From Candidatus Omnitrophica bacterium UBA6253 (GTDB taxonomy: Bacteria; Omnitrophota; Gorgyraeia; Gygaellales; Profunditerraquicolaceae), in the NCBI GenBank assembly GCA_002441245.1, contig DJVP01000011.1:53295-117294 (forward strand): a stretch of 64,000 nt of DNA, in the 5' to 3' direction. Positions 1-42,011 of the stretch are shown in pieces. Position 1 is the first letter of the stretch; every line of letters starts with the position of its first letter. The notes below the pieces were generated by a model that made no database searches, was not told where the DNA came from, and saw only the letters and a list, made by a program, of their open reading frames with translations. The translations under genes and the position numbers were made by a program.

Positions 1-488
1 ACGCTACTAATTCAGCTCTTCCAGTAGTGTCTATTGACCGAATGGTGGTTACTTGGACCATTAGCGGTGGTGGAGGTGGCGGCCACTGGTGGTGGGGGTC
101 ATCTGCTACTTTGCAATCTATAAGAATAGGGGGTTGGGACCGTTGGACCGGAAATTTAAACTCGCCGGCAAACGCGGATTTTATTACTAACTATACTTTA
201 ACCGGCACGTCGGCTATTTCAGTTGACCGTTTGCGTTTTAGCAGTAGTATTCAAAATTTAAGCAGTATGAGTATAGAGTTTGTGATGACTGATGGCTCAA
301 GCAAAACCGTGGCGGTATATCCGCCTTCTGATACCTGCCAGTTTACGATTAATTCCACCGGAAAAGTCTCCGGTTCGAGTATTTATCGAACAATCAGGGC
401 TACTTATGATTTAACGCCTTTAAATTTTAACACAGATTCTAAGATAGTTGATATTGATGAGATTAATACAGAAATCACCTCGCCGTAA
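1..488 (+). CDS. Hypothetical protein, 3' fragment; the frame is open from the window edge. It contains a Gly/Trp-rich stretch and sits in a pilus-gene context.
   Basis: Frame 3 has no stop from nt 3 to 488, and the track ORF is 27..488. It lies next to prepilin-type genes. No recognisable family. Confidence 0.3.
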   Translation, partial: ATNSALPVVSIDRMVVTWTISGGGGGGHWWWGSSATLQSIRIGGWDRWTGNLNSPANADFITNYTLTGTSAISVDRLRFSSSIQNLSSMSIEFVMTDGSSKTVAVYPPSDTCQFTINSTGKVSGSSIYRTIRATYDLTPLNFNTDSKIVDIDEINTEITSP

Positions 489-867
489 GCCAAGGGCCTT
501 CACGCTTATTGAGCTGATTATGACAATAGTCGTAATCAGCATAGTTGCTTTGCCGATTTCCGTTACTATGGCAAAGCATGTGCAGAGTGTTTTTCAGTCG
601 CAAGATATAACCATGGCGATTAACCTGGCCAGGCTTGATCTAGAACAGGTGAATAATACTCCATATAACAGCATTGCTTCTGCCAATATCCCTAATTATC
701 AGGGTTATGGTTATGATTTAGTACGCACAGTTTATTTTCTAAACGGTTCAACATATAGCCAGGAAAGCACTAAAAAGATAACTGTCCAGGTCAGTAAGGC
801 AGGAAGCGCAACAGTATTAGCAAAACTGGTTACTTATATATCCAAGAACATAAGGTACCCTTTTTAA
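448..867 (+). CDS. Prepilin-type N-terminal cleavage/methylation domain protein (minor pilin or pseudopilin)
   Basis: The N-terminus reads ...KPRAFTLIELIMTIVVISIVA, matching the class III signal consensus (G/A)FTLIEL followed by a hydrophobic helix. The true start may be the ATG at 457. Confidence 0.55.
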   Translation: MILMRLIQKSPRRKPRAFTLIELIMTIVVISIVALPISVTMAKHVQSVFQSQDITMAINLARLDLEQVNNTPYNSIASANIPNYQGYGYDLVRTVYFLNGSTYSQESTKKITVQVSKAGSATVLAKLVTYISKNIRYPF

Positions 868-871
868 GATA

Positions 872-1447
872 ATGAAGAATATTAAGGTGTTCCGAGGTTT
901 TAGTTTTATAGAACTAGTTATGGTTATGGCTATAATCGGAATATTAGCCGGCGCCGGCACCTGGATTATGGGCTATACAGTAAAAAACTCGGTTTTTATC
1001 CCGAACCAACTGAATATGGATAAGTTAGCTAATGATGCTTTAGAGGTTATGATTGAGGGTGATGGCCAGGCCAGAGGTTTACGTTTTTCCAGAATTATTA
1101 GCACTATCGCGGCCAATCAAGTAGCTTTTATCAATCAGGATGGGGTAGCGATTATCTACCGTTGGGATACCAGTGCAAATAGACTTTACCGTAAGATAGG
1201 CTCTGCGGCTGAAACGATTATACCAGCTTATGCCTCTGGTTTGTCAGGCGTAACCTTAAGCGGTAAAAGCGGGGTACTCTTTACCTACTATGACGCAAAT
1301 GAGGCGTTAACCTCAAACGCCGCCAACGTAAGGCGGATCAAAATGATTTTAATTGCTAAAAGCGGGACAGGTTTGTATAATGACTGGCAAGGGCAATCCG
1401 AGCAGGTTTCATCGGTTGCTGTGAAGAGGTTAGGGGTGGGGCTTTGA
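872..1447 (+). CDS. Prepilin-type minor pilin (FimT/PilW-like)
   Basis: The N-terminus MKNIKVFRGFSFIELVMVMAIIGILAGAG is a textbook prepilin leader followed by the G|FxxIEL motif. Confidence 0.6.
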   Translation: MKNIKVFRGFSFIELVMVMAIIGILAGAGTWIMGYTVKNSVFIPNQLNMDKLANDALEVMIEGDGQARGLRFSRIISTIAANQVAFINQDGVAIIYRWDTSANRLYRKIGSAAETIIPAYASGLSGVTLSGKSGVLFTYYDANEALTSNAANVRRIKMILIAKSGTGLYNDWQGQSEQVSSVAVKRLGVGL

Positions 1448-1453
1448 TATTGA

Positions 1454-3100
1454 TTGCCGGGATGTTTTATAATCTTTTTAGGATTTATGGAACGGTTCAA
1501 GTTTTTAAAATTTGGGGAGAATAATAAGCGCCTCACCTGTATTGATTTCGGAGGTTCGTTTATTAAGGTAGTTTGTGTTAAAAGGGAAGATGCTGTTTAC
1601 AAGCTTTTGGCTTACTCTTTAAAGGAATTTGACACGGCTTCAAGCACATCCGAAGGATTGAGCGTTTTTCTTAAGCAAACCCTTGAAAGTAATTCTTTAT
1701 TCGGCAAGGAGGCTTATTTAAGTATTTCTGACCCGGAAGGAGTTTTTATTAAAAAACTCAGTCTTCCGTATATGCCTAAGGATGAACTGCTTAACGCGGT
1801 GAAGTGGCAGCTTAAGGGTGAGATTCCCTTTAGCCCTGAAGAAAGCGTTTCGGATTTGCAGGTTGTCCGTGAATGTTCAGATAGCGAAGGCGCTAAGAAA
1901 ATTGAGATTTTCTGTGTTTTTGCCAAAAAAGACGTAGTTAATAAATATGTTTCCGCGGTTATCGGCTGCGGGCTTGAGCCCCAAAGAGTATCAAGCAGCG
2001 TATTCAATTACTGCGGGATTTTGGATTCGTTATCCTCCAGGGCGCAAGTCAGCGCTATTTTTGATATAGGTAACACCCATTCTTATATTTCTATCTATCA
2101 AAAGAATAAATTGAGCTTTGTCAGAAGCTTGAATTTTTCTACTTCCAAGTTTTCCGCTTCATTATGCGGGCCGCTGATAATTGATAAGGGCAAGGTTGAA
2201 ATTAATTTTGATAAAGCCGAGCAGCTAATACTAGAACAGGGGATTCCTCTTGATGAAACAATTGTGCTTGAAGACGGTATAAAGACAGCGCAGCTTATAC
2301 CGCTTATGCGGCCGCTGCTTGAAACAGTAACTAAGGAATTAGAGCGTTCCTTTGATTATTTTAAATCTGAAACCGGTTCCGGCAACCCGGAAGTTTTGTA
2401 CATTACCGGAGGCGGAGCAAACCTGAAAAATCTTGATAACTATTTGGCAGGAGCGCTTAAGATAAGTATAGAGAAATTGCCTTTACCTGCTTCGCTTGAT
2501 ATTAAGAATGTTGATGCAGAAAAGTTTTTTCTTCAAGTTAATCAGCTTTCCAGTGCTATAGGATTAGGTTTCTCAGGCTCCGGAATAAATTTACTGCCGC
2601 GTGAGGTAAAAAACCGCAAGGCAGAGTTGATCCAGAAGGCTGTACTGCGTATTGCCGCAGTTGCTATCGGTGCGATGTTTGCTTTTTCCTGGTTTGTAAT
2701 TAATTTTCAGATCCGTGATTATAGAAAGCGTTTAAAAATAGCCACCCTGCATTTGCAGAGCGTAGAAGAAATAAAAACTCTAAAACAGGCAATAGATTTA
2801 AGGGATGATTTTATCAACAAGATCCATACGGGCAAGGTCCCTTCCGGAGGGCTGTTAAGGTTAATCGGTTCAGTCATACCCGCAAGAATTATACTTAATG
2901 AGTTTGATTTTGACCAATCCGGCCATTTGATGCATCTTAGCGGTGTAGTCATTGGCAGCGGGGATTCAGTGGAGAAGGTAATTACGGATTTTATGAAAGC
3001 GCTGGAAGATTCAAAGTTTGTCCTGGAGGCAAATCTGATCAATTCCAAAGAGACTGGAGAGGTTAATAATTTTGAGATGGAGTGTATTTTAGCTAAATAA
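1454..3100 (+). CDS. pilM: Type IV pilus assembly protein PilM (actin-like ATPase fold) fused to a PilN-like TM plus coiled-coil segment
   Basis: 548 aa. The N-terminal ~350 aa look PilM/FtsA-like. The C-terminal part, NLLPREVKNRKAELIQKAVLRIAAVAIGAMFAFSWFVINFQI, is a PilN-type single TM followed by a coiled region. An alternative start is the ATG at 1487. Confidence 0.6.
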   Translation: MPGCFIIFLGFMERFKFLKFGENNKRLTCIDFGGSFIKVVCVKREDAVYKLLAYSLKEFDTASSTSEGLSVFLKQTLESNSLFGKEAYLSISDPEGVFIKKLSLPYMPKDELLNAVKWQLKGEIPFSPEESVSDLQVVRECSDSEGAKKIEIFCVFAKKDVVNKYVSAVIGCGLEPQRVSSSVFNYCGILDSLSSRAQVSAIFDIGNTHSYISIYQKNKLSFVRSLNFSTSKFSASLCGPLIIDKGKVEINFDKAEQLILEQGIPLDETIVLEDGIKTAQLIPLMRPLLETVTKELERSFDYFKSETGSGNPEVLYITGGGANLKNLDNYLAGALKISIEKLPLPASLDIKNVDAEKFFLQVNQLSSAIGLGFSGSGINLLPREVKNRKAELIQKAVLRIAAVAIGAMFAFSWFVINFQIRDYRKRLKIATLHLQSVEEIKTLKQAIDLRDDFINKIHTGKVPSGGLLRLIGSVIPARIILNEFDFDQSGHLMHLSGVVIGSGDSVEKVITDFMKALEDSKFVLEANLINSKETGEVNNFEMECILAK

Positions 3101-3101
3101 A

Positions 3102-3686
3102 ATGAACCTGCCAAAGATAGACATAACCCGGAATCAGAAAAATATAATTATAATGAGTGCGGCAGCCTTGTTTGTTTTTTTGTTGTTTTGGATATTTTTA
3201 TACTTTCCCAGCAGTAGGGAGATCGCCAGCCTTAAGAATGAATTGATTTCTATGCAGCAGCAGATACAAGGCATAGAGATATTTTTGTCCGGTTCGCAAA
3301 GCAGGGATGAGGCAATCCGGGCCCTGAAAGCAAGGCAGTTGTATTTAAGCAATAAATTTCCTCTGGGGGAAGAGGAGAGCTTGAGGCTTATTCCGGAAAT
3401 AGCGCGCAAGATGAACATTGATGTTATTTCTATTCGTCCGGGTTTGCGCACGGAGTTCCTGGATGAAGCCGGTAAACAGGTGATTATTGAGGGTAAAACA
3501 GCAAGCTATCTGCCGATAACTATGGAGGTAACCTGTTTTTATAAGGATATGGTAGCTTATCTGACAAAGTTAAAAAGCCTCCTGCCGGCCTTTATCAGTG
3601 TGGTAAATTTAGATGTCAGAAAAGAAGAAAGGCTTAATGGCAAGATTAATTCTACCATAGGGTTTAACTTGTATTTATTAGTTTAA
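3102..3686 (+). CDS. pilO: PilO-like pilus assembly protein
   Basis: 194 aa with an N-terminal TM (AALFVFLLFWIFLYF), then coiled-coil, then a C-terminal domain. It sits immediately after the PilM/N gene. Confidence 0.5.
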   Translation: MNLPKIDITRNQKNIIIMSAAALFVFLLFWIFLYFPSSREIASLKNELISMQQQIQGIEIFLSGSQSRDEAIRALKARQLYLSNKFPLGEEESLRLIPEIARKMNIDVISIRPGLRTEFLDEAGKQVIIEGKTASYLPITMEVTCFYKDMVAYLTKLKSLLPAFISVVNLDVRKEERLNGKINSTIGFNLYLLV

Positions 3687-3689
3687 AAA

Positions 3690-4133
3690 ATGCGCCAGAA
3701 AGATCTAATTGAGCTTGGAATAACGGGAATTTTAGTGACGGTATTGATAATTGTTTTCGTTAATACCTTTAGAAAATTGCACAGGTCTAATATTGCTGCG
3801 CCTAAAGTAGTTGATTTGGTTAACCAGCCTTTTTTAACTTATAATAAGGTAGATAGTAAAGATTTATATGATTTGCTTGAACAGGAAGCTAAATCCTTTG
3901 ACTTAAAGAGGGATCCCTTTACCGCTGCTCCCATTATAGACGAGAAGAATATGCAATCCGGTATTGCTTTGACCGGCATACTCTGGGATAAGATCAAGCC
4001 ATTGGCGATTATTGACGGGGAGGTGGTTAAGAAAGGGGACCGGTTTGGCAATAAGGTGGTTGTGGATATAAAGCGGGATAGGGTAATTTTAAGCGATGGA
4101 CAGGAGCTTCTTGAGATTAAACTTGAGCCTTGA
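3690..4133 (+). CDS. pilP: PilP-like pilus assembly protein
   Basis: 147 aa with an N-terminal TM. The C-terminal beta-domain pattern IIDGEVVKKGDRFGNKVVVDIKRDRVILSDGQELLEIKL resembles PilP. It sits between PilO and the pilin/secretin genes. Confidence 0.45.
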   Translation: MRQKDLIELGITGILVTVLIIVFVNTFRKLHRSNIAAPKVVDLVNQPFLTYNKVDSKDLYDLLEQEAKSFDLKRDPFTAAPIIDEKNMQSGIALTGILWDKIKPLAIIDGEVVKKGDRFGNKVVVDIKRDRVILSDGQELLEIKLEP

Positions 4134-4152: not shown

Positions 4153-4554
4153 ATGAGCGGAAAAGGTTTTGCTATGGTTGAGATTATTATTATTTTAATG
4201 ATTATTGTTTTATTGGCTGTAATAGCAGTGCCGTATTTAACAACTTCTGAAAAAGCCAGCGCAATAACAGCGAGAGAGGCCTTAAGCAAGCTTTCTGTTG
4301 CCGCAGAAAATTACGCAACATTCCATAGCGGCGCCTATCCTGCCAGTGTCATTGAACTTACTGAGTTTATTGCTTCAGCAGGCAGCTATTGCGCTAATGC
4401 AACCGGAGCAATTACAGTTTCCGGAGGGTATAGTTATTCATGCACATTGGGGCCAGGCGGGTATGTTTTTTCAGCCAGTCCGGTTATGGCAGACTCAAGC
4501 GGAAGCGGTGCTACCTATACTGTTACCACAGGTGGAGTGCTTACGCCATTATAG
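4153..4554 (+). CDS. Type IV pilin (candidate major pilin) with a Ser/Thr/Gly-rich C-terminal tail
   Basis: The start MSGKGFAMVEIIIILMIIVLLAVIAVPYL carries the G|FAMVEI prepilin motif. The ATG at 4153 is preceded by a GGA-rich RBS, and the track ORF starts upstream at 4096. The C-terminus reads ...ADSSGSGATYTVTTGGVLTPL. Confidence 0.6.
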   Translation: MSGKGFAMVEIIIILMIIVLLAVIAVPYLTTSEKASAITAREALSKLSVAAENYATFHSGAYPASVIELTEFIASAGSYCANATGAITVSGGYSYSCTLGPGGYVFSASPVMADSSGSGATYTVTTGGVLTPL

Positions 4555-4581
4555 AAAAATAGAAACACCCTCCTTTTTATA

Positions 4582-6549
4582 ATGATTACTTTTAAAAAAA
4601 TACATAAGCAGTATGCCTTGGTTTTTTTATTAATCTGCGCAGCTTCTTTTCTCGCCTATTTTAATTCTTTAACCAATCCTTTTATATGGGATGATAACGC
4701 CTTGGTCGCAGGAAACAAACTTATCCGTTCCTGGCAGAATTCAGGCTTGACTTTTGTCAACCATCTTTACCCGGAGGCAAATTCCGGTTCAAATTTCTAT
4801 CGGCCGCTGCAGAGTATATCTTATATATTTGATTATCATTTCTGGCAGCTTGACCCTTTCGGATATCATCTTACCAATATAATCCTGCAGATTGGCGTTT
4901 CCTTCCTGGTTTTTCTTTTGTTGTTTAATCTGCTGGCTAATTTGCCTATTGCTGTTGCTGCGAGTGTTTTTTTTGCTGTCAGCCCTTTAAATACGGAGGT
5001 GGTTACTTATATCTCGGGCAGGGCAGATATGCTTATGGGGTTTTTTCTTATACTTAGCCTGTTATTATTTATACGAAGCCAGAAAGGCGGGGTTAAGAAA
5101 CCCGTATTGCTTTATGCATTATCCATTGGCAGCTTTGTATTAGCTTTATTCAGTAAGGAGGCGGCAATTGTTTTTCCTTTTATAATTTGCGGTTATATCT
5201 TTTACTTTCTGCATGAAAAGATAAAAGAAAGGCATTATTTTATTAAACAAATTATTCCATTCTTTACCGCAAGCTTAATTTACCTGGGGATAAGGGTTTT
5301 CCTGCTTGATTTTGCTGCATTTTATGAGCCCTCGCTGGCTAAGGTTTTCTGGTTTATCCGCTTAAGTGTTTTGCCGAAAATAATTTTTATTTACTTAAAA
5401 CTGCTTATTTTTCCGATTGGCTTGCATATGTCGCGCCAATTTACCTGGCAGGGCAGCCAGGCGCAAGTTTTATTTGGGTTAAGCTGCCTTGGGTTAATGA
5501 TTGCCGGGTGCCTGTATTTATTAAGGTATTCATTAAAAAATAAGGCCGCTTCTTTTATGTTCCTTTGGGCTCTAGTTTTTTTTATCCCGCAGTCCGGTAT
5601 TTTTCCAATTAATACTTTCATCGCCGAGCATTTTATTTATTTATCCTCAATCAGTTTTTACCTGCTTGTAGTTTATATTTTATATAAAGCCTTGAGCAGG
5701 CGCATGTTTGTTCCGGTTGTTGGCCTGCTTTGCGTGTTCTATATCCTGCTTACTGCAGGGCGTAACTTTGAATGGGGCAACCAAATAGTTTTTTATAAGA
5801 ATATCATCAAGTATTCGCCTCAAAGTTACCAGGCGCACAATAATCTTGGCCTGCAATATGAGCTTAGAATGCAGAATGAGCAGGCGATAGAAGAATATAA
5901 AAAGGCGCTGGAGATTAAGCCTGATCTGCTTGAGGCGCGCTCAAACCTTGCCAACCTTTACTTAAAGTTAAAACACTTTACTCAGGCTAAAAGAGAGTAT
6001 GAATTTGCCAAGAAGATCTGCCCTCCTGATAAGGTTGCCGAAATCGAGAATAATATCGCTAATGCCTATGAGGCAGAGGGGTCCTTTGAACAGGCCATCA
6101 AAAGATACAGGCTGGCTTTAGAGCTTGATCCCGGGATTGTTTTTGCGCATTATAACCTGGCGCGTATTTATTATGCCCAAGGAGATACTTATTCTGCGGG
6201 GCTGCATATACTGGAATCACTAAAGGAGGTTACGGGCAGTGCCAAGGCAGCAGACTGCAGGGTTATTGCCGGTTTTCTTAAGAGCTGCGGTTACGTTGGT
6301 AGTGCCGAAGAGTTTTATAATAATTTAGGGGTTAGGTTTGCCAGAAACGGCCGTTGGGAGGCTGCAGCCAGCGCTTACCGGCGCGCCCTGGAATTAAATC
6401 CTGATTTCCCCGGTTATTATTATAATCTGGGTGTCGTTTATTTAAATATGGGGAATAGGCTTGAGGCAAAACGCGCCTTAAGGCAGGCATTAAAAATCAA
6501 TCCTAATTACATCAGGGCCAAGAGGTTAATAATCGAGGATAAGTTGTAA
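4582..6549 (+). CDS. Polytopic membrane protein with C-terminal TPR repeats (TMTC/PMT-like GT-C glycosyltransferase candidate)
   Basis: 655 aa. About 10 predicted TM helices at the N-terminus, with a WDD motif in the first extracytoplasmic loop (NPFIWDDNALV). The C-terminal ~250 aa are TPR-like, with repeated A..Y...L/G..Y spacing such as YNLGVVYLNMGNRLEAKRALRQALKINP. Confidence 0.5.
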   Translation: MITFKKIHKQYALVFLLICAASFLAYFNSLTNPFIWDDNALVAGNKLIRSWQNSGLTFVNHLYPEANSGSNFYRPLQSISYIFDYHFWQLDPFGYHLTNIILQIGVSFLVFLLLFNLLANLPIAVAASVFFAVSPLNTEVVTYISGRADMLMGFFLILSLLLFIRSQKGGVKKPVLLYALSIGSFVLALFSKEAAIVFPFIICGYIFYFLHEKIKERHYFIKQIIPFFTASLIYLGIRVFLLDFAAFYEPSLAKVFWFIRLSVLPKIIFIYLKLLIFPIGLHMSRQFTWQGSQAQVLFGLSCLGLMIAGCLYLLRYSLKNKAASFMFLWALVFFIPQSGIFPINTFIAEHFIYLSSISFYLLVVYILYKALSRRMFVPVVGLLCVFYILLTAGRNFEWGNQIVFYKNIIKYSPQSYQAHNNLGLQYELRMQNEQAIEEYKKALEIKPDLLEARSNLANLYLKLKHFTQAKREYEFAKKICPPDKVAEIENNIANAYEAEGSFEQAIKRYRLALELDPGIVFAHYNLARIYYAQGDTYSAGLHILESLKEVTGSAKAADCRVIAGFLKSCGYVGSAEEFYNNLGVRFARNGRWEAAASAYRRALELNPDFPGYYYNLGVVYLNMGNRLEAKRALRQALKINPNYIRAKRLIIEDKL

Positions 6550-6631: not shown

Positions 6632-7045
6632 ATGCCCAACAACAAGGCCCGAAGTTTTGTTATGATCATGATCGCCGTAGGATTGAGCGCATTATTGCTG
6701 CGCACAATGATCCAGAGGTTTATTGTTTATAATGTTGAGCGTAATCAATCATTGGCGCTTGTCAATCTTAAGCTTTTTTATACAGCTTTAGAAAATTACG
6801 CCAAAGATAATAAAGGCGTGTATCCTGATAATATAAACCAGCTTACCAAAGGAAACCCGGTTTACCTGGAAAAAGATTATCTGGCTGTATCATCCGTGAG
6901 GGGTTATGAGTATGATTGCCAGCGGCTTGACTCAAGCGGCTATAACTGCTCGGCAGCTCCGGTAAACTGTAACCTTACCGGAAATAAAGTTTATACTATG
7001 TCTACCGGCGGCTTGATTATCGCCGAGGGTTGCGATAAGAAATAA
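6632..7045 (+). CDS. Hypothetical exported protein, Cys-rich C-terminus (possible pilin-like or pilus-associated)
   Basis: 137 aa. The N-terminus is hydrophobic (ARSFVMIMIAVGLSALLL) but lacks the Glu5 prepilin motif. The C-terminus has 5 Cys. It lies between the TPR protein and the secretin. Confidence 0.3.
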   Translation: MPNNKARSFVMIMIAVGLSALLLRTMIQRFIVYNVERNQSLALVNLKLFYTALENYAKDNKGVYPDNINQLTKGNPVYLEKDYLAVSSVRGYEYDCQRLDSSGYNCSAAPVNCNLTGNKVYTMSTGGLIIAEGCDKK

Positions 7046-8734
7046 ATGGTAAAAAGAGTGAAAAATATATTCTTAATTTGTGCTTTATTTTTCTGCTTGT
7101 TTGTTTGCGCCTTGGCCCAGCAGGATAATTTAGATGTTCCGGCTGAGCAAGGGAATGTTACTTTGGATTTCAAAGAGGCAGACATCTCTAATGTGCTTAA
7201 GATTATCTCCTATAAGTCAGGGGTCAATATAGTGACCACGCCTGATGTGGCGGGAAGTGTTTCAGTGCGCTTAAGTGATGTACCGTGGGAGATAGCCCTG
7301 GATGTTATCTTAAAGACTTACGGTTTTGGATACCAGAGGCAGGGCAATGTTATACTGGTTACCAGGGTAGATAATGTGGCTAAGATTGCCGCCGAGGAGC
7401 CTTTGCAGACGGAGATTATTACTTTGAAATTTCTGGACGCGCAGGACGCGCAGAAGATTATTATCCCTCTGCTTTCTCCGCGGGGAAAGATATCTGTTTT
7501 ATATACCCGCGGCCAGAAAGGCTGGCAGTTTGGAACTTTTAAGATTGGCAGGGATTCTGCCGGTTCCAGCGCAGCTTCTGTAAAAGATGGAGCTAATTCT
7601 ACCAGGTCGGAGACGGTTTCTTATGAGAAGGATGATAAAGGGCAGACAGTAATGAAGAAGGCAGAGTTTGACCCGTCAGTGAAATCCAAGATGCTGGTAA
7701 TTACCGATACCCCCAGCTCGCTTGATAAAATACGCAATATAATATTGCCCAAAATTGATATTAAACCCAAGCAGGTGCTTATTGAAACAAGGATTATAGA
7801 AGTCAATCGCAATAAACTAAGAGACCTGGGCATTGATTGGGGGCTAGGCGGGGCTGGTTCGGCAACAGATACCGCGATACAGATGCAGGGGTCCGGCACT
7901 GCTATAGGAGGACATTCCGGTACGATTAAGACTGCTGCTACAGCTACAAGCGCAGCTAAAACCGTAACTCCGTCTATTTTTAATCCGGCAACAACCGGGA
8001 TCTCAGGATATGAGCCATATAATGCCGGAGGTGAATTTGTATTCCAGAAGTTAACCGGAACTAAGTTTGAAGCGGTTATCCATGCCCTGGAGGATGATGC
8101 TAATACCAATACGTTGTCTGCGCCGAGCATCCTTACTCTTGACAACCAGGAGGCATCTATGTTAGTGGGGTATCATACCCCCATACTTCAATCTACAGTT
8201 ACCGCCGGCGATAACAGCGGCACCGGCACCGGAGCAACTATTACCCAGACACTGGATTATTACCAGGAGATAGGTATTCGTTTAAATGTTGTCCCGCAGA
8301 TAAGCGAAGAAGGCTACATAAATATGATTATCCATCCTAGCGTCACGTCTTCTAATTCCAGCGTTACGGCCACTTCTACTGCCAGCGGGGAGACAACAGA
8401 GACAGAGTATCCGATTATCGATGTGCGCGAAGCCCAGACCCAGGTCTTGCTTAAAGACCAGGAGACTATTGTAATCGGCGGCCTGCTTAAAGATGTTAAG
8501 GCCAAAGAATTTATAGGTATACCTTTCTTGAAAGACCTGCCCTGGATAGGAAAGTTTTTTGGCCGTGAAACAACAAGCACGCAGAAAATTGATCTTTTAA
8601 TATTTATAAAGGCCAGGATAATCAGGGAGGGGGAGTATACTCCTGAAGAGCTGACTAAACTGGAGACAAGATTAGAGCGTGGGCCGGTGATTATCAAGGG
8701 AAAAGAATTAGATAAGAAAGGCAGGAATAAATAG
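7046..8734 (+). CDS. pilQ: Type IV pilus secretin PilQ (GspD/PilQ family)
   Basis: 562 aa with a signal peptide (MVKRVKNIFLICALFFCLFVCALA). The C-terminal secretin motif is VIGGLLKDVKAKEFIGIPFLKDLPWIGKFFG. It also has a G/S/T-rich insert. Confidence 0.75.
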   Translation: MVKRVKNIFLICALFFCLFVCALAQQDNLDVPAEQGNVTLDFKEADISNVLKIISYKSGVNIVTTPDVAGSVSVRLSDVPWEIALDVILKTYGFGYQRQGNVILVTRVDNVAKIAAEEPLQTEIITLKFLDAQDAQKIIIPLLSPRGKISVLYTRGQKGWQFGTFKIGRDSAGSSAASVKDGANSTRSETVSYEKDDKGQTVMKKAEFDPSVKSKMLVITDTPSSLDKIRNIILPKIDIKPKQVLIETRIIEVNRNKLRDLGIDWGLGGAGSATDTAIQMQGSGTAIGGHSGTIKTAATATSAAKTVTPSIFNPATTGISGYEPYNAGGEFVFQKLTGTKFEAVIHALEDDANTNTLSAPSILTLDNQEASMLVGYHTPILQSTVTAGDNSGTGTGATITQTLDYYQEIGIRLNVVPQISEEGYINMIIHPSVTSSNSSVTATSTASGETTETEYPIIDVREAQTQVLLKDQETIVIGGLLKDVKAKEFIGIPFLKDLPWIGKFFGRETTSTQKIDLLIFIKARIIREGEYTPEELTKLETRLERGPVIIKGKELDKKGRNK

Positions 8735-19921: not shown

Positions 19922-20764
19922 ACAGTCTACGTAACTATATATTCCCCAGCCATATCTGTAAGAAATATTTCTATTTTTAAAATAAACTTCGTTAGATTTA
20001 CCCATCTCCTACGTCAATTATGATAGAAGGAGGGGAAAATTATGCCATCGTATGCGCGCAAGCATCAGCTTCAACAGTCATTAGCGTATCATGCGTTTAA
20101 CCGAAGTAATGGACGAAAGGTAATTTTTCAAGAACCGGGGGATTTTGATCGTTTTAAGACTTTACTTTACGAGTATGGTTTTAAGTTTGATGCAAAAATA
20201 TACCATTGGGTGATTATGCCGAATCATTACCATCTTGTGGTCGAATTTAATTTACCTGAGTTAATTTCGAAATTTATGGCAGGATTGCATCGGGCATATA
20301 GCCATTATTATCATAATCAATATAACTCGGTAGGTTTTTTATGGCAAGGCAGGTTTAAATTACAGCCGATACAAAAAGATTTATACTTGAAAAATTGCGG
20401 CAGGTATGTGGAGAGGAATCCGGTGCGCGCGGGAATGGTCAAAGAGGCCTGTGAATATGCGCATAGTAGCGCGCGGTTTTATTGTTTAGGGCAGGAAGAT
20501 GGTGTAACGCAAGTCAGTTGCGATTTTGAAAATTTTGGAAAAGAAGCAACTGGGCGCAGGGCAGTTTATAAAGAATTCCTGAGGGCTTTTGATAGCGAGG
20601 AAGAGGCGTACTTCTCAAACATAGAAATTCCTTGTGGTGACCAAGATTTCCTGCGTAGGCTGGTAAAAGCGAAGGGGCATTATTACCCGAGAAGGCAAGG
20701 TAGGAAGGCTGCAATATTTGTTTTGTAAACGCATATATTTGATATGATTGCATAGACTGTCTAC
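19918..20764. mobile_element. REP-associated tyrosine transposase (RAYT) unit flanked by inverted copies of the GTAGAC-W-GTCTAC module
   Basis: The left end at 19918-19934 is GTAGACAGTCTACGTAA, an inverted module. The right end at 20752-20764 is ATAGACTGTCTAC, a direct module. Between them lies the IS200-like Y1 transposase gene. Confidence 0.7.
20042..20728 (+). CDS. IS200/IS605-like Y1 (HuH) transposase of the REP-associated (RAYT) type
   Basis: HuH motif MPNHYHLVVEF. C-terminal motif YVERNPVRAGMV with the catalytic-Tyr context typical of PF01797 and RAYTs. 228 aa. Confidence 0.8.
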   Translation: MPSYARKHQLQQSLAYHAFNRSNGRKVIFQEPGDFDRFKTLLYEYGFKFDAKIYHWVIMPNHYHLVVEFNLPELISKFMAGLHRAYSHYYHNQYNSVGFLWQGRFKLQPIQKDLYLKNCGRYVERNPVRAGMVKEACEYAHSSARFYCLGQEDGVTQVSCDFENFGKEATGRRAVYKEFLRAFDSEEEAYFSNIEIPCGDQDFLRRLVKAKGHYYPRRQGRKAAIFVL

Positions 20765-20771
20765 AGATTTG

Positions 20772-20780
20772 TGGTATAAT
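20772..20780 (+). promoter_or_regulatory. Extended -10 (TGGTATAAT) just downstream of the right REP end, 8 nt before the SemiSWEET ATG
   Basis: TGnTATAAT pattern. There is no obvious -35 and it is very close to the ATG, so the transcript may be leaderless. Confidence 0.3.
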
Positions 20781-20788
20781 TATTAATT

Positions 20789-21064
20789 ATGCTTTGGCAT
20801 TTGATTGGCGCGATGGCCGCCACCTTAACCATGTTTTCTTTTATTCCGCAGATAGCCAGGTCTTTAAGGACTAAATCTGTAAAAGACGTCAGCCCGATTA
20901 CCTTATTCCAGCTTTCTGCCGGTGTTTTACTCTGGATGATCTATGGTATCGCGCGCAAGGATGTGATAATTATCGGCGCGAATCTGATAACTTTTATAAG
21001 CCTGGCAGTGCTTATTTTCTTGTATTTTAAATATAAAAAGGTGGATGTTTCTTTTAAGAAATAA
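20789..21064 (+). CDS. SemiSWEET (PQ-loop/MtN3 family) sugar transporter
   Basis: 91 aa with 3 TM helices and the PQ motif (FSFIPQIARSLRTKSVKDVS). It is close in sequence to characterised bacterial SemiSWEETs. Confidence 0.75.
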   Translation: MLWHLIGAMAATLTMFSFIPQIARSLRTKSVKDVSPITLFQLSAGVLLWMIYGIARKDVIIIGANLITFISLAVLIFLYFKYKKVDVSFKK

Positions 21065-21140: not shown

Positions 21141-22007
21141 ATGAAAGGCATAATTCTGGCTGGTGGCAAGGCAACGCGTCTTTATCCTATAACTAAAGGT
21201 GTCTGTAAGCAGATGCTGCCGATTTATGATAAGCCGATGATCTATTATCCTTTATCAGTATTAATGCTGGCAGGTATACGGGAAATTCTGGTTATCTCTA
21301 CTCCCAAAGATACACCAAGATTTAAAGATTTATTGGGGGATGGCTCCAGCTTAGGGATTAAATTATCTTACTCTGTCCAACTTGAACCGAAAGGAATTGC
21401 CCAGAGTTTTGTGATTGCTGAAGATTTTATCGGCCGCGATAACGCCTGTCTTATCCTGGGAGATAATATTTTTTACGGTTATAATTTAAGCGAGCTCTTG
21501 CAGCAATCAGCCAGGATTAAGGATGGGGCGGTGATCTTTGGTTATTATGTCAAGGACCCTGAGCGTTATGGCGTGCTTGAGTTTAATAAGAAATGCAAGG
21601 TTACCTCGATTAAAGAAAAACCTATAAAGCCCAAATCTAACTGGGCGGTGGCGGGTTTGTATTTTTATGATAATAATGTGGTAAAGATTGCCAAGAATAT
21701 CAAGCCCTCTGCAAGGGGGGAGCTGGAGATCACTTCGGTAAATAACGAATACATCAAAAGAGGCAAACTCAGGGCGGAATTTCTCGGCCGTGGGCATGCC
21801 TGGCTTGATACCGGTACCTATGAATCGCTTATTGACGCATCGGTTTTTATTAAAACGATAGAAGACAGGCAGGGGCTTAAGATCGGCTGTATTGAAGAGG
21901 TGGCCTACCGTATGGGTTATATTAATAAAACACAATTGCTAAAGCTTGCCGGCCAGATACCGACCAGCTACGGCGAATACTTGAAGGATTTACTTAAAAA
22001 TGGATAA
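21141..22007 (+). CDS. rmlA: Glucose-1-phosphate thymidylyltransferase
   Basis: [18 protein letters not shown]...[11 protein letters not shown] is the RmlA signature. A G7 tract lies at 21131-21137 in the RBS region. Confidence 0.9.
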
Positions 22008-22821
22008 AAACATTTTAATTTTGGGAAAAGGGTTTATCGGCGAAAGGCTGCAAAAAGAGTTTGATTGCCCAATTGACGGCTCAATGATAAATTGTTTTAG
22101 CGACGCCGAGAAACTGGCCAAGAAATATGCCCCTAAAATAATCATAAATTGTATCGGCATTACCGGCAGGCACAATGTCGATGACTGTGAATTAGAGAAG
22201 GATGCGACTCTATTGGCAAACAGTTTTATCCCGGTAATTCTGGCTGAAGTTTGCCTGCGCAATAACATTAAGCTTGTGCATATAAGCAGCGGGTGTATTT
22301 TTAATTACGACTATAAGAAAAATGTATCGATAAAAGAAAATAGCCAGGATTATTTCTTCGGGTTGTTCTATAGCCGCAGCAAGATCTATTCGGAAAGGGC
22401 GCTTGATACGCTTAGCCGGGATTATAATATACTTATTGCCAGGATCCGCATACCCCTGCTTAATGCCAGGCATCCTAAGAACGTGTTAGATAAGCTTATA
22501 AAATACAAGAAAATAATCGATATTGCTAATTCCATAACTTATATACCTGATTTTATCCGGGCAATTAAACATTTGATAAAGATTGACGCCCGGGGGGTGT
22601 ATAATGTAGTAAATAAGGGCGGCTTGCGTTATCCGAGGCTTATGCGGGTTTATCAAAAATACGCCCCGGATTTTAAATTCAAAGTGATTGCCTTAAAGAA
22701 ATTAGGCCTGGCCAGGACTAACCTTATTTTGTCCACAAGCAAGCTTGAGAAAACAGGTTTTAAGGTCAGGAATATCAACTCAATCCTAGAAGAATGCGTA
22801 AAAGAATACCTAAAATCTTAG
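22000..22821 (+). CDS. NAD(P)-dependent sugar-nucleotide reductase, RmlD-like (dTDP-4-dehydro-6-deoxyhexose reductase candidate)
   Basis: 273 aa. N-terminal [13 protein letters not shown] Rossmann motif and a short-chain SDR YxxxK-like catalytic region. It sits between rmlA and rmlB. No rmlC was seen. Confidence 0.45.
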
Positions 22822-23786
22822 TTACCGGCGGGGCGGGTTTTATCGGCAGTGCCTTTGTCAGATTGCTGGTTAAAAACGGGATATCCCCTGTAGTTGTTGA
22901 CAAGCTTACCTATGCCGGAGACCTTAAGCGCCTTGAGGAGGTAATGGGCAAATTTAAATTCTATAAAACCGATATCTGCAGCAAAAAAGGGATCGAGGCT
23001 GTTTTTGCTAAAGAGAAACCGGCTGTCGCAGTTCATTTTGCCGCTGAAAGCCATGTTGACCGCAGTATCCATGATGCTACTCCGTTTGTAGAGACTAATA
23101 TTAAGGGGACGCAGGTACTTCTTGACGCCAGCCGCAAACATAATATAAAGAAATTTATTCTAATCTCTACTGATGAAGTCTATGGAGAGATCGCCAATGG
23201 CAGGTTTAATGAAAATTCTCCGATTAAACCTAACAGCCCTTACGCCGCATCTAAGGCAGCGGCAGACCTTCTGGTGCAGGCGTATATTAGGACAAATAAT
23301 TTCCCTGCAATAATTATCCGGCCGTCAAATAATTACGGCCCGTGGCAATATCCGGAGAAACTTATCCCGCTTGCTATATTAAGAATATTAGGGGATGGTA
23401 AGGTACCGGTTTATGGCAAGGGATTAAATGTGCGCGAATGGCTTTATGTTGATGACTGTGTGCGAGGCATTATGATGATTATGCGCAAGGGTAAAATCGG
23501 AGAGACGTATAACTTAGGCAGCGCTTGCGAGAGTAAAAACATTGACACAATCAAATTATTGCTAAAAACCCTTGGTGTTGGCCATGACAGGTTTGAGTTC
23601 GTAAAAGACCGCTTAGGCCATGATATAAGGTACAGCCTTAATTCAAGAAAGATTGCCAAGGGGCTTGACTGGAAGCCGGGAGTTAAGCTTAGCCAAGGGC
23701 TTAAGCTCACAGTGGCTTGGTCGCTTAAGCATAAAACTTGGCTTAAGAGTAAGCTAGGCGATATTAATAAGCTATATAATAAATAG
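22794..23786 (+). CDS. rmlB: dTDP-glucose 4,6-dehydratase
   Basis: [16 protein letters not shown]... catalytic YAASKAAADLLV(Q)AY and DEVYG. Confidence 0.85.
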   Translation: MRKRIPKILVTGGAGFIGSAFVRLLVKNGISPVVVDKLTYAGDLKRLEEVMGKFKFYKTDICSKKGIEAVFAKEKPAVAVHFAAESHVDRSIHDATPFVETNIKGTQVLLDASRKHNIKKFILISTDEVYGEIANGRFNENSPIKPNSPYAASKAAADLLVQAYIRTNNFPAIIIRPSNNYGPWQYPEKLIPLAILRILGDGKVPVYGKGLNVREWLYVDDCVRGIMMIMRKGKIGETYNLGSACESKNIDTIKLLLKTLGVGHDRFEFVKDRLGHDIRYSLNSRKIAKGLDWKPGVKLSQGLKLTVAWSLKHKTWLKSKLGDINKLYNK

Positions 23787-23807
23787 AACCCCCTTTTAAT
23801 TTTAAAA

Positions 23808-23864
23808 GCTGTAGTATTTCTTTTGTAACTATTTATCTATAATGGAATTACGTATACTGTCTAC
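23808..23864 (+). repeat. Single direct repeat module, ...TTTGTAAC..TATAAT..TTACGTATACTGTCTAC, ending 4 nt before the ATG of the next gene
   Basis: GTAGTATTTCTTTTGTAACTATTTATCTATAATGGAATTACGTATACTGTCTAC. The TATAAT box is at 23837-23842. Confidence 0.6.
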
Positions 23865-23867
23865 TAT

Positions 23868-24935
23868 ATGGCGATTGTCATAGTTACAGGTTCCTGCGGG
23901 TTAATCGGCTCTGAAACTGTGAGTTTTTTTGCGGAAAAAGGCTTTGATATCGTCGGTATCGATAATAATATGCGCAAAAGTTTTTTTGGCGCTGACGGTT
24001 CAATCCTTTGGAATAAAAAACGCCTGCAAAAATTATATAAAAACTACCGGCATTATTCTGTAGATATCCGTGACCAGGGCAAAATCAATTCAATATTCAA
24101 GAAGTATAATAAAGATATCGCTTTAATTGTGCATGCCGCGGCCCAGCCATCCCATGATTGGGCGGCAAGAGAGCCGGCAATTGACTTTGGGATTAATGCC
24201 CAGGGCACGCTGGTTATGCTCGAGGCCTTGCGTAAATTATCCCCCCGCTCAGTTTTTATTTTTGCCTCAACGAATAAAGTCTATGGCGATACCCCTAACC
24301 GGCTTCCCTTAATAGAAAAGGAAAAACGTTTCGAGATCTCATTTGACCACAAATATTTCAAAGGTATTGATGAAACAATGAGCATTGACAACTGCCTGCA
24401 TTCGGTTTTCGGCGCCTCAAAGGTTGCCGCGGATATTATGACACAGGAGTATGGAAAGTATTTCCATCTTAAAACCGGAGTGTTTAGAGGGGGATGCCTT
24501 ACCGGGCCGGCTCATTCCGGCGCTGAATTACATGGGTTTTTATCATATATGGTTAAATGCTGCGTGACAAAACGCAAATATAAAATTTACGGTTATAAAG
24601 GCAAACAGGTCAGGGATAATATACACTCTTTTGATATGGTAAGTGCTTTTTATCATTATTTCCAGAGTCCCCGTTGCGGAGAAGTTTATAATATAGGCGG
24701 AGGCAGATTTGCCAATCTCTCGGTTATGGAAGCAATCGAGATGTGCGAAAAACTAAGCGGCGAAAAGTTTGATTATGAATATATTGATACTAACCGCATC
24801 GGCGACCACATTTGGTGGATCAGCGATGTATCTAAGTTTAAGGCGCATTATCCTGATTGGCAGTATAAGTTCGGCATAGAAGAAACTCTTCGCCAGATTG
24901 TAGACAGTGTACGTAATTCTCTTAAATCTAAATAG
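23868..24935 (+). CDS. NAD-dependent epimerase/dehydratase family protein (CDP-paratose-2-epimerase-like extended SDR)
   Basis: [15 protein letters not shown]...[15 protein letters not shown]. The last 12 codons overlap an inverted repeat module (GTAGACAGTGTACGTAA at 24900-24916). Confidence 0.7.
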
Positions 24936-25026
24936 TTAGAAAACAAATTTTTATCTGAATTAAAATACAGGTATAGTATTTCTTATATAACCTCTTATTT
25001 TTGATATAATTACGTAGACTGTCTAC
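24900..25026. repeat. REPIN-like inverted doublet: an inverted module at 24900-24957 and a direct module at 24970-25026 with TGATATAAT at 25002-25010
   Basis: The outer dyads are GTAGACAGTGTAC at 24900-24912 and GTAGACTGTCTAC at 25014-25026. The inner boxes AAATTTGTTTTCTAAC and GTATTTCTTATATAACCTCTT are conserved. Confidence 0.6.
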
Positions 25027-25033
25027 AAATCAA

Positions 25034-25402
25034 ATGCGGAAGACGATATTGATAATAGAAGACGATCCCCTAAATATGAGGTTGAGCGTTGATTTGCTTG
25101 AATTAAACGGTTTTAATACTCTAAGTTGTGAAGATGGCTGCAGCGCTCTTGAAACCCTAAAGAATACTATCCCCGACCTTATTCTGCTTGATATAAACAT
25201 GCCGAAGATGAATGGTTTTGAAGTTTATAAGAAAATAAGAGAAGATGACCGGCTAGATCAGGTTAAGGTAATTGCCATGTCTGGATCGGTGATGAAAGAA
25301 GATGAGCGAAGGATAGTTGCTGCCGGTTTTAATGATTTTGTGCCCAAGCCCATTGATATAAAGGGATTAGTAGGCAAGCTAAAAGGTTATTTATCTGTAT
25401 GA
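25034..25402 (+). CDS. Response regulator, receiver domain only (CheY-like)
   Basis: 122 aa with acidic pocket IIEDD, phospho-Asp LLDINMPKMNG and the conserved K in PKPI. Confidence 0.8.
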   Translation: MRKTILIIEDDPLNMRLSVDLLELNGFNTLSCEDGCSALETLKNTIPDLILLDINMPKMNGFEVYKKIREDDRLDQVKVIAMSGSVMKEDERRIVAAGFNDFVPKPIDIKGLVGKLKGYLSV

Positions 25403-26523
25403 AGGAATGCATGGAAGTAGAATATCGCGAGCTTGTAGAAAATGCTAATAGCATTATCCTGCGCATGGATATGAAAGGCAACCTTACCTTTTTTAATAGA
25501 TACGCGCAGGAATTCTTCGGTTATAGCCAAGAGGAGATTTTGGGGAAAAGCGTGATTGGCACTATAGTTGCCCCTACCGATTCATCCGGACGGGACCTTA
25601 AGGCGATGATTGATGATATAGTTTCCCATCCATTACGTTATGTTGAAAATAAAAATGAGAATATGCTTCGTAACGGCGAGAGGGTGTGGATAGCCTGGAC
25701 TAATAAAGCCATACTTGATAAAGATGGCCGCGTAGGAGGGGTATTTAGTATCGGTAACAATATAACCAAACTTAAACAAGCCGAAGAGGAAATATTAAAG
25801 GCAAAAGAGGCTGCAGAAAGCGCCAATAAAACCAAAAGTGCATTTCTTGCCAATATGTCGCATGAGCTAAGGACGCCGCTTAATGCGATTATCGGGTTTT
25901 CTGAACTGGTAAAAGATGAAAGCGTTGGGGCCCTTAATGGGAAACAAAAAGAATATCTCAATTATGTTTGGGAAAGCGGCAAGCACCTGCTTTCATTGAT
26001 AAATGAGGTACTTGATTTGTCGAAAGTCGAAGCAGGAAAAATGGAGCTGGAGCTGACCGAATTTGACCTAAAAGAACTTTTAAAAAAGAGCCTTATGTTT
26101 ATATCGGAAAAAGCAATGAAGCAGGAGATCACGCTTTTGACCGATATTGAAGAAGGCGTGGGAATTATTAAAGCTGATGAGAGAAAAATAAAGCAAGTAG
26201 TTTTTAATTTGCTTTCTAACGCTATGAAATTTACTCCTAAGGGGGGTAAGGTTAGTATTCAGGCAAAGATTGCAGGAGAAAATGAAGTTTTAATTTGTGT
26301 GTGGGATACAGGTATTGGGGTAGAAGCCAAGGATAGCCAAAAAATATTTTCTGAATTTGAGCAAATATCCAGTGAATATTCGCGTCAATATGCCGGGACT
26401 GGTTTGGGCATGCCTTTGAGTAAAAAATTTATTGAGTTGCATGGCGGCAAGATGTGGTTTGAAAGCGAGGGAAAGAGTAAGGGTACATATTTTTATTTTA
26501 CATTACCGTCTAAGATAGGCTAA
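25399..26523 (+). CDS. Cytoplasmic PAS-domain sensor histidine kinase
   Basis: A PAS fold follows a coiled region. H-box MSHELRTPLNAI. An N-box and G1/G2 HATPase_c follow (NLLSNAMKFTPKGG, GTGLGMPL). No TM segment. Confidence 0.8.
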   Translation: MKECMEVEYRELVENANSIILRMDMKGNLTFFNRYAQEFFGYSQEEILGKSVIGTIVAPTDSSGRDLKAMIDDIVSHPLRYVENKNENMLRNGERVWIAWTNKAILDKDGRVGGVFSIGNNITKLKQAEEEILKAKEAAESANKTKSAFLANMSHELRTPLNAIIGFSELVKDESVGALNGKQKEYLNYVWESGKHLLSLINEVLDLSKVEAGKMELELTEFDLKELLKKSLMFISEKAMKQEITLLTDIEEGVGIIKADERKIKQVVFNLLSNAMKFTPKGGKVSIQAKIAGENEVLICVWDTGIGVEAKDSQKIFSEFEQISSEYSRQYAGTGLGMPLSKKFIELHGGKMWFESEGKSKGTYFYFTLPSKIG

Positions 26524-26537
26524 CGAAAGGAGCAGAT

Positions 26538-26906: not shown

Positions 26907-26960
26907 ACAGTTTACGTAATTTCTTTAAAAGTAGCAGGTTACAAAACAAATATTTATAAA
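26903..26960 (-). repeat. Single inverted repeat module (GTAGACAGTTTACGTAA ... GTTACAAAACAAATATT) between the response-regulator stop and the epimerase start
   Basis: Its reverse complement aligns base-for-base with the module at 28283 (AATATTTGTTTTGTAACCT...AATTACGTAAACTGTCTAC). Confidence 0.6.
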
Positions 26961-26963
26961 AAT

Positions 26964-28001: not shown

Positions 28002-28002
28002 T

Positions 28003-28060: not shown

Positions 28061-28097
28061 TTGAGCGCGGTTAGCTTTCTATAATACAGGAGGTGGC

Positions 28098-28262: not shown

Positions 28263-28282
28263 GGGGTTACATGTAAAGTTGA

Positions 28283-28333: not shown

Positions 28334-28340
28334 TAAGTAA

Positions 28341-30173: not shown

Positions 30174-30177
30174 CGCA

Positions 30178-41291: not shown

Positions 41292-42011
41292 ATGAATATA
41301 AAAAAATTATCAATTATCATTCCCGCTTATAACGAGTGTAATACTATTCACTTGGTACTCAACAAAATTAAAGATGTGATTTTAATAAATGGAATTACAA
41401 AAGAAGTAATTATCGTAAACGATTGCTCAACAGATGATACGGAGAGAGCTATAGAAAACTATATTGCAGCCAATCCATCTTTAAATATTCAGTATTTTAA
41501 ACATGAAATAAATCAGGGAAAAGGTGCTGCGTTGCATACAGGTATTTCTAAAGCAATTGGGGATTATTTAGTAATTCAAGATGCAGACCTTGAGTATGAC
41601 CCATATGAATATAACCTGTTACTTAGCCCTGTTATTAATGGATTTGCTGATATTGTATATGGTTCAAGGTTAATGGGAGGAAACCCACATAGGGTTTTAT
41701 TTTTTTGGCACAGTATTGGCAATAAATTTCTGACCTTTATTTCAAATACGTTTACAAACTTGAATCTGACTGATATGGAAACATGTTATAAACTTTTCAA
41801 AAGAGAAATAATTCAAAATATTAAGTTAAAAGAAAAAAGATTTGGTTTTGAACCAGAAGTAACTGCCAAAATAGCTCGAATTCCTAATCTTCGTTTATAT
41901 GAGGTTGGAATTTCCTATTATGGCAGGACTTATGCAGAAGGTAAGAAAATCGGATGGAAAGATGGTTTAAGGGCTATTTATTGTATAATCAAGTATAATA
42001 TATTTATATAG
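41292..42011 (+). CDS. GT2 polyprenol-phosphate sugar synthase (DPM1/ArnC-like)
   Basis: 239 aa, LSIIIPAYNECNTI...VNDCSTDDT...IQDADLEYDP (DxD). Its small size is typical of Dpm1-like enzymes. Confidence 0.7.
   Translation: MNIKKLSIIIPAYNECNTIHLVLNKIKDVILINGITKEVIIVNDCSTDDTERAIENYIAANPSLNIQYFKHEINQGKGAALHTGISKAIGDYLVIQDADLEYDPYEYNLLLSPVINGFADIVYGSRLMGGNPHRVLFFWHSIGNKFLTFISNTFTNLNLTDMETCYKLFKREIIQNIKLKEKRFGFEPEVTAKIARIPNLRLYEVGISYYGRTYAEGKKIGWKDGLRAIYCIIKYNIFI

Follow-up and report, generated by a model that had tools for sequence, protein, structure and literature searches.

A pilin gene followed by a gene for a membrane protein with TPR repeats

The window analyzed here, a stretch of 64,000 nucleotides (nt) from contig DJVP01000011.1 of Candidatus Omnitrophica bacterium UBA6253 (G+C 39%), opens with a type IV pilus gene cluster that fills its first 8.7 kb, as recognized from open reading frames (ORFs) and Pfam matches. 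Within this cluster, a gene for a type IV prepilin of 133 amino acids (aa), the candidate major pilin (4153..4554, + strand), is followed on the same strand by a gene for a 655-aa protein (4582-6549). This second protein, called the GT-C–TPR protein here, combines a putative GT-C glycosyltransferase domain (residues 1-400; 4582..5781, + strand) with a C-terminal domain of tetratricopeptide repeats (TPR; residues ~401-655; 5782..6549, + strand). A sequence-only reading of the window had proposed the pair as a candidate system for pilin O-glycosylation and had placed 4 nt between the pilin stop and the next ATG. The pilin frame closes with TAG at 4552-4554 and the GT-C gene starts with ATG at 4582, and the spacer read from the sequence is 27 nt (4555..4581) rather than 4 nt. 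At the junction, no terminator-like or promoter-like site above shuffle expectation was found, and thus co-transcription of the two genes is plausible. On balance, the adjacent pilin is favored as the acceptor of the GT-C–TPR enzyme, which makes the pair a candidate for pilin O-glycosylation.

The pilin begins with MSGKG|FAMVEIIIIL, a classical prepilin start with cleavage before F6. E10 corresponds to mature position +5, and two cysteines (Cys80 and Cys97) are present. An in-frame ATG at 4096 could add 19 residues to the N-terminus, but the short MSGKG leader appears to fit a prepilin better than the 4096 start. Matches in NCBIfam are weak and concern the N-termini of GspG and ComGC. The homologues of the pilin (n = 36) are all from Omnitrophota where they are named, and some are labelled PilE or ComGC by JGI. 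The AlphaFold (AF2) model, with a predicted local distance difference test (pLDDT) of 83.8, is a canonical pilin with a long α1 helix (residues 4-57), a three-stranded sheet (84-110) and short strands at 122-125 and 129-132; Foldseek gave no significant match for this model.

Candidate acceptor sites lie in the C-terminal region of the pilin (4483..4551, + strand), which includes the loop 111-121, the strand TYTVTT and the terminal GGVLTPL. The protein ends in ...SSGSGATYTVTTGGVLTPL, an end also given as ...VMADSSGSGATYTVTTGGVLTPL. Its last 25 residues include nine Ser/Thr (36%, versus 11% in 21 other window proteins, where 0.7% of 25-residue stretches reach this level), so that the description of the tail as Ser/Thr-rich in the sequence-only reading holds. 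The loop 111-121 (VMADSSGSGAT) is rich in Ser and Gly, lies between strands and is modelled with low pLDDT (64), as a flexible segment. Among the 35 orthologous loci with a pilin upstream, the C-terminus TYT[AS][ST]TGGV[LI]TPL (also given as TYT[AV][ST]TGGV[LI]TPL) is nearly invariant, and the strand TYTxTT within it, which is rich in Thr and invariant, may be the acceptor instead of the loop. The terminal TPL was also considered as a docking tag and found to be a weak candidate: loci whose pilins end in ..KPE keep the GT-C gene, and six loci with ..TPL do not have it.

Fold, topology and active-site motifs of the GT-C–TPR protein

The TPR repeats are readily detected with Pfam (TPR_1 1.3e-31 and TPR_2 1.7e-30; residues ~400-650), and the domain as modelled has 15 helices in ~7 repeats. 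The character of the membrane domain emerges from its relatives and from the predicted structure. Of 23 relatives, four exceed the Pfam threshold for PMT and three that for PMT_2. Among relatives at 45-65% identity, PMT scores 33.7 bits (cutoff 22.7) and PMT_2 37.7 bits (cutoff 26.1), and these matches cover the region equivalent to residues ~50-236. The AlphaFold model of the GT-C–TPR protein, built on an alignment of 65 relatives, has a pLDDT of 87.9 and a predicted template modelling score of 0.83. In this model the membrane domain is multi-spanning and has a GT-C fold; its structural matches include ArnT (16.3), AftA (15.9), PglB (15.2), AftB and AftD. The AlphaFold comparison suggested in the sequence-only reading has thus returned GT-C enzymes, with ArnT among them. 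The same reading would have been refuted by an O-antigen ligase fold or an unrelated transporter fold with no GT-C catalytic loop; the DD loop is present, and neither a ligase nor a transporter occurs among the top 60 structural matches. Likewise, Pfam gave no match to Wzy_C, the O-antigen ligase domain, in the GT-C–TPR protein. A Foldseek search of the whole model against the Protein Data Bank (PDB) returned TPR proteins only and is uninformative on the membrane domain.

Because the helices of the AF2 model and the short loops rich in Lys/Arg fit such an arrangement, the protein is predicted to have 11 transmembrane (TM) helices, a cytoplasmic N-terminus and a periplasmic TPR domain. W36-D37-D38 (nt 4687-4695) directly follows TM1 (helix 4-31), and the W-D-D sequence is invariant. 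The two aspartates (nt 4690-4695) are found in 64/64 relatives that have residues at those columns. An acidic motif is thereby located in the first extracytoplasmic loop after TM1, as in GT-C enzymes. The sequence-only reading had described a multi-TM protein with a WDD loop motif and C-terminal TPR repeats, and this architecture is confirmed.

Conservation was assessed over the same number of relatives (65, at 42-76% identity), of which 64-65 keep the residues of catalytic type. Invariant or nearly invariant positions are D37-D38, S70-N71-x-Y73-R74-P75-x-Q77, H96, N99, P135, R147, K192-E193, R260, Y271, P278, H282, P336-Q337 and E349-H350-x-x-Y353. In human TMTC1-4, seven motifs have been described around the donor and metal sites: M1 to M7 are DD, SHKSYRP, RxD, KE(T/Q)xxT, DW, PxxP and ERxxY (PMC7801869). 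Five of these (M1, M2, M3, M4 and M7) can be recognized at equivalent loops of the GT-C–TPR family and are invariant. M1 corresponds to D37 D38, the YRP part of M2 to Y73 R74 P75, M3 to R147-A-D149, the KE of M4 to K192 E193 and M7 to E349-H350-x-x-Y353, in which His replaces Arg. M5 (DW) is absent from the protein and M6 is altered (P336...P342). The residues equivalent to the phosphate-binding ones of TMTC and ArnT (K192, E193, E349, H350 and Y353) are conserved, and the family consensus LLFAVSPLHTE is close to LLFAVHPIHT of TMTC3. Taken together, the motifs and the PMT/PMT_2 matches of the relatives mark the N-terminal domain as a predicted GT-C enzyme of the PMT/TMTC type whose putative active-site residues are under strong constraint, in agreement with the resemblance to TMTC and PMT enzymes seen in the sequence-only reading. 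Judged from fold and motifs, the protein is very probably an active GT-C enzyme.

Linkage to pilins, natural losses and the candidate acceptor

The closest relatives of the GT-C–TPR protein all come from Candidatus Omnitrophota. They carry the label "tetratricopeptide repeat protein" at NCBI and at times "protein O-mannosyl-transferase" at JGI. In five loci found by exact protein look-up (L001-L005), a pilin of 126-140 aa lies directly upstream of the gene despite differing preceding genes. This linkage was extended with a scan of one genome per species in which orthologs were defined by at least 45% identity (n = 36 loci). A pilin is encoded directly upstream in 35/36 of these loci from other Omnitrophota genomes, an adjacency beyond chance that supports the candidate proposed in the sequence-only reading. 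The gene preceding the pilin varies across the 36 loci (MiaB-like in 15, PilP-like in two and other in 19). Conversely, when metagenome loci with at least 1 kb downstream were scanned from the pilin (n = 54), the GT-C gene was directly downstream in 39. Beyond the orthologs, 44 loci encode distant paralogues (29-42% identity), and a pilin-like ORF is found at most 1.2 kb upstream in only nine. In four loci (L045, L048, L077 and L084), paralogues of 31-37% identity lie 74-166 nt downstream of other pilin types. The pilins there are very Ser/Thr-rich, for example ..PTGTTGGYVWSPTTSTTSYSLQACPSTTSTG.. in L045. These paralogues placed after other Ser/Thr-rich pilins, together with the Ser/Thr-rich tail and flexible loop of the window's pilin, support the pilin as acceptor.

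Several observations weigh against this assignment. For residues 1-400 of the window protein, Pfam gave nothing relevant at E ≤ 10 and no GT-C match, and neither phmmer with the N-terminal 400 residues nor hmmsearch with the N-terminal profile A2 found a match among PDB sequences. The GT-C gene is missing in 15/54 pilin loci of the reverse scan, and the conserved synteny partly reflects shared ancestry. Pilin loops contain 3.09 Ser/Thr per 10 residues in loci with the gene and 2.33 in loci without it (Mann-Whitney p = 0.097, uncorrected for kinship), and one clade keeps the gene though its pilin loop (..AGANKKI..) has no Ser/Thr. In L086 (4405-5238), a deletion variant of 277 aa without residues ~25-415, which make up the entire catalytic core, adjoins a pilin; its TM1 is fused directly to a TPR domain 54% identical to that of the window protein. 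The pilin loop at L086 is acidic (..TDTVEEEGEGAYTVTTGGVFTPL), and the locus has no PilQ. Because L086 keeps TM1 and the TPR domain next to a pilin, the TPR part probably has some value of its own without catalysis. Finally, the pilin/GT-C pair has no linked gene for donor synthesis or for a flippase, and no DprE1, DprE2, PPPRS or UbiA-type gene was found among the ~50 window genes scanned with Pfam, a set outside which ~12 housekeeping-like genes (8.7-26.9 kb) fall.

The L086 variant lends some weight to a different role, in which the protein acts mainly as a factor for pilus biogenesis or stability. Its TPR domain would then bind the pilin, the pilin-like protein or PilQ in the manner of a pilotin or chaperone such as PilF, PilW or Tgl, and the GT-C part would be an anchor or act elsewhere. 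In addition, the protein has partial NCBIfam matches to Tgl and PilW, and no separate TPR lipoprotein was seen in the pilus clusters examined (L001-L005). However, the NCBIfam scores fall far below the cut-offs (68.4 bits versus 154 for PilW and 78.9 versus 225 for Tgl), and the structural matches of the C-terminal part are generic TPR proteins (OGT, MamA, PilF, PilW and PEX5), with MamA, OGT, BBS4 and PEX5 scoring equally. PilF, PilW and Tgl are outer-membrane lipoproteins and not proteins of 11 TM helices, whereas the GT-C–TPR protein opens with the 11-TM domain and not with a lipoprotein signal. Invariance of the catalytic-type residues in 64-65/65 relatives would also be unexpected for a mere anchor. 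The pattern of gene loss points the same way. In the L090 clade, the GT-C gene has been lost cleanly from its place between pilin and pilin-like gene (L090 3498-6164), and the pilin tail is ..GGVFNPSLQ instead of ..TPL; PilMN, the pilin-like gene and PilQ are kept. The same clean loss is seen in L087 (4001-6699), where the rest of the pilus cluster, including PilQ, is kept. PilM, PilO-like genes and PilQ are still held by both GT-C-less clusters. Since the cluster is retained after these losses, the gene behaves like the accessory genes of the Pseudomonas pilin groups; a core role in assembly would not fit. A primary role in biogenesis is therefore considered decidedly unlikely, and membership in the PilF/PilW/Tgl pilotins is ruled out by scores, architecture and loss patterns.

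A second alternative accepts an active GT-C enzyme but assigns it another acceptor: it may be a general protein O-glycosyltransferase, or it may modify another pilus component, a lipid or an envelope glycan, as do ArnT and Gtr-type enzymes. Such breadth would suit the very large family of the N-terminal domain, whose profile collects 100,426 sequence clusters at E ≤ 1e-3 and 14,734 at 1e-30, with all named top matches from Omnitrophota. It would also suit the several paralogues per Omnitrophota genome (35/44 of those at 29-42% identity have no upstream pilin), the presence of ArnT among the structural matches and the p value of 0.097 for the loop comparison. Against it, the orthologous group almost always and specifically adjoins a pilin within varied flanks, the gene is always inside the pilus cluster, and a protein partner is suggested by the TPR domain, as it is for TMTC and TfpW. 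For these reasons a different acceptor is regarded as unlikely.

Pilin glycosylation thus remains the favored interpretation. From the observed fold, motifs, architecture and conserved gene linkage, we infer a topology, a lipid-linked donor, the pilin as acceptor and a role for the TPR domain. The product of gene 4582-6549 would be an inner-membrane GT-C glycosyltransferase of the TMTC/PMT type, whose 11 TM helices would orient the conserved loops, among them the one with the putative catalytic Asp37-Asp38, toward the periplasm, where the TPR domain would also lie. Such an enzyme would draw a sugar from a polyprenyl-phosphate-linked donor and attach it to a Ser or Thr in the product of the pilin gene 27 nt upstream. 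The pilin would be modified before its assembly, at the stage of anchoring in the inner membrane, and the TPR domain may hold the protein substrate or a partner in the pilus machinery. By analogy, the pilus subunit is probably sugar-coated, much like that of the TfpW system described below. There is a slim chance that more is at hand, namely the first member of the huge bacterial TMTC-like (GT-C plus TPR) family, which has no assigned function, to be paired with a specific natural substrate. In that case the conserved C-terminal strand and tail of the folded pilin (TYTxTTGGV..P.) would serve for docking to the TPR domain, which would have a second, catalysis-independent role in pilus biogenesis, at which L086, with TM1 and TPR only, hints.

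Surrounding genes and comparison with known systems

The other genes of the pilus cluster flank the pair on the + strand. Upstream type IV pilus genes (448..4133) comprise two minor pilins (448-867 and 872-1447; Pfam N_methyl), a PilM-PilN fusion of 548 aa (1454-3100; Pfam PilM_2 and PilN) and, in the PilO/PilP position, two genes (3102-3686 and 3690-4133) that are unassigned, with no family match in Pfam or NCBIfam. A PilM-PilN fusion of 537 aa is likewise found in L001, L004, L087 and L090, and a separate PilM of ~340 aa in L003 and L005. Downstream of the pair, a pilin paralogue of 137 aa (6632..7045; 30% identity to the pilin by BLASTP, E 2e-13) has a degenerate prepilin cleavage motif, in which position -1 is Ser and not Gly and position +5 is Met and not Glu, and ends in ..YTMSTGGLIIAEGCDKK. 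In L001, L005 and most orthologous loci this paralogue likewise comes after the pilin/GT-C pair, and it stays beside the pilin in the GT-C-less loci L087, L090, L113 and L159. It is followed by a PilQ-type secretin (7046..8734; Pfam Secretin 5.5e-43, STN and GspD N0). Over the whole window, 63/63 non-overlapping ORFs of at least 80 aa lie on the + strand, an unusually complete strand bias over 64 kb. An IS200-like Y1 transposase adjoins a 91-aa PQ-loop/SemiSWEET-like gene (20042-21064), and a Y1 transposase is also located near the pilus cluster of L003 (1438-2028).

Genes for glycan synthesis occur farther along the window. A small GT2 enzyme of 239 aa (41292..42011, + strand; Pfam Glycos_transf_2 9.6e-32) is of the polyprenyl-phosphate-sugar synthase type, and its best partial NCBIfam matches are AglJ, PgfS, PpgS, ArnC and dolichyl-phosphate hexose transferase, all below the cut-offs. 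Given this synthase-like gene, the organism is probably able to make lipid-linked monosaccharide donors; a tie between this GT2 and the pilin system is conjecture. The GT2 gene adjoins a second GT-C gene (42027-44534), which encodes 835 aa with a match to Pfam PMT (1.4e-7) and none to TPR. An hhalign comparison of the N-terminal profile of the GT-C–TPR protein with this second GT-C gave no match, probably because the target was one sequence only. The second GT-C gene lies between small GT2 genes (239 and 338 aa) of the polyprenyl-phosphate-sugar synthase-like kind, and the segment 41292-45588 has the look of a module for periplasmic glycan modification. B12-binding radical SAM enzymes occur at three scattered places in the polysaccharide biosynthesis cluster (32417-33841, 39813-41195 and 45585-47045), which suggests unusual methylation or other glycan modification. 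A large surface-glycan locus (21141-32338 and 57584-62048) contains RmlA-like and RmlD-like genes, several genes for NAD-dependent epimerases/dehydratases, a GDP-mannose 4,6-dehydratase, a Wzm/Wzt ABC exporter pair and a NeuB-type nonulosonic acid synthase.

The segment 55006-57581 encodes an initiating sugar transferase (Bac_transf, 1.9e-65) and, after it, a Wzy_C-family protein (56400-57581; 1.8e-19), whose role may be that of a ligase, polymerase or O-oligosaccharyltransferase. Its position beside an initiating enzyme raises a third alternative, that the pilin, if glycosylated, receives its glycan en bloc from this protein, in the manner of PglL and TfpO, themselves of the Wzy_C family, and not by the adjacent GT-C. 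Yet the Wzy_C gene is 52 kb from the pilin, within the polysaccharide cluster, and the best partial NCBIfam match of its product is IctB. A conserved linkage of this gene to pilins was not seen. Although compatible with the main explanation, this route to the pilin glycan is very improbable.

The sequence-only reading had taken TfpO and PglL, whose genes it placed next to pilA in Pseudomonas and Neisseria, as its precedent. Both are pilin-modifying membrane enzymes, and tfpO (pilO) does follow pilA directly in P. aeruginosa group I; in Neisseria, however, pglL is unlinked to pilE. TfpO and PglL are also enzymes of the Wzy_C/O-antigen-ligase type that move preassembled glycans en bloc, whereas the GT-C–TPR protein has no Wzy_C match and no ligase among its structural matches. 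They are thus a weaker precedent than TfpW, which is the proper one. The cyanobacterial Ogt is likewise a TPR-containing glycosyltransferase that is needed for PilA glycosylation, and it adjoins pilin genes in 38% of 201 cyanobacterial genomes. Ogt differs in being a soluble cytoplasmic GT41 enzyme that uses UDP-GlcNAc, has its TPR at the N-terminus and is unrelated to the GT-C fold. In the protein O-mannosyltransferases of the PMT family (yeast Pmt1, Pmt2 and Pmt4; GT39), a luminal MIR domain takes the place of the C-terminal TPR domain, the motif is DE rather than DD, and identity in the structural alignments is only 10-12%.

TMTC1-4 are eukaryotic O-mannosyltransferases that combine a GT-C domain with C-terminal TPR. 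Like them, the GT-C–TPR protein is predicted to have 11 TM helices, a cytoplasmic N-terminus and, across the membrane from it, the TPR domain. The DD, ..YRP, RxD, KE and ExxxY motifs stand at equivalent loops, and LLFAV.P.HTE in TM3 is common to both. The phosphate-binding Arg of ERxxY is replaced by His, however, and the protein lacks both DW and the DUF1736 segment; DUF1736 was matched neither by the window protein at E ≤ 10 nor among the families of 23 relatives at E ≤ 1. The hosts also differ (eukaryotic versus bacterial), and the donor here would be a bacterial polyprenyl phosphate. If the pairing is true, a conserved pair of enzyme and substrate genes would provide a simple system in bacteria for the choice of protein substrates by TMTC-type enzymes.

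Omnitrophota are uncultured, mostly ultra-small bacteria that are thought to be host-dependent, and pili are counted among their symbiosis-related genes (PMC10066038). Glycosyltransferases and TPR proteins are unmentioned in that published survey of the phylum (PMC10066038). If true, glycosylation of the pilus would bear on attachment, recognition and phage resistance, as in Pseudomonas.

Compared by its published description, TfpW (AAM52060.1) is the closest precedent. TfpW is the GT-C pilin D-arabinofuranosyltransferase of P. aeruginosa group IV strains (Pa5196 and PA7), where it is required for O-linked D-arabinofuranose (D-Araf) on the pilin and is encoded immediately downstream of pilA. 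It has 646 aa, a cytoplasmic N-terminus, 11 predicted TM helices, a periplasmic C-terminal TPR domain and an essential DDX motif in periplasmic loop 1. Since DprE1, DprE2 and PPPRS, which form the TfpW donor pathway, were not found among the ~50 scanned window genes, the sugar is probably not D-Araf here. The YX6PFX7P motif of TfpW (periplasmic loop 4) is matched in part: Y271-x6-P278 is invariant and is followed by I/V instead of F, and the second Pro, at +12 in the family consensus, is absent from the window protein. The two systems also belong to different phyla (Proteobacteria versus Omnitrophota). Against these differences stand extensive likenesses. In both systems the gene comes right after the pilin gene (27 nt on the same strand in the window, an arrangement kept in 35/36 loci) and behaves as an accessory and not a core pilus gene. 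The proteins are similar in size (646 versus 655 aa) and share the cytoplasmic N-terminus, the 11 predicted TM helices and, in the periplasm, a large TPR domain at the C-terminus, as predicted for the window protein. The DD(x) motif in the first periplasmic loop, essential in TfpW, is invariant here, and ArnT, the closest structural template of TfpW, is also a match of the window protein. By this analogy, the GT-C–TPR protein is a candidate TfpW-like, TMTC-type pilin glycosyltransferase in an uncultured phylum.

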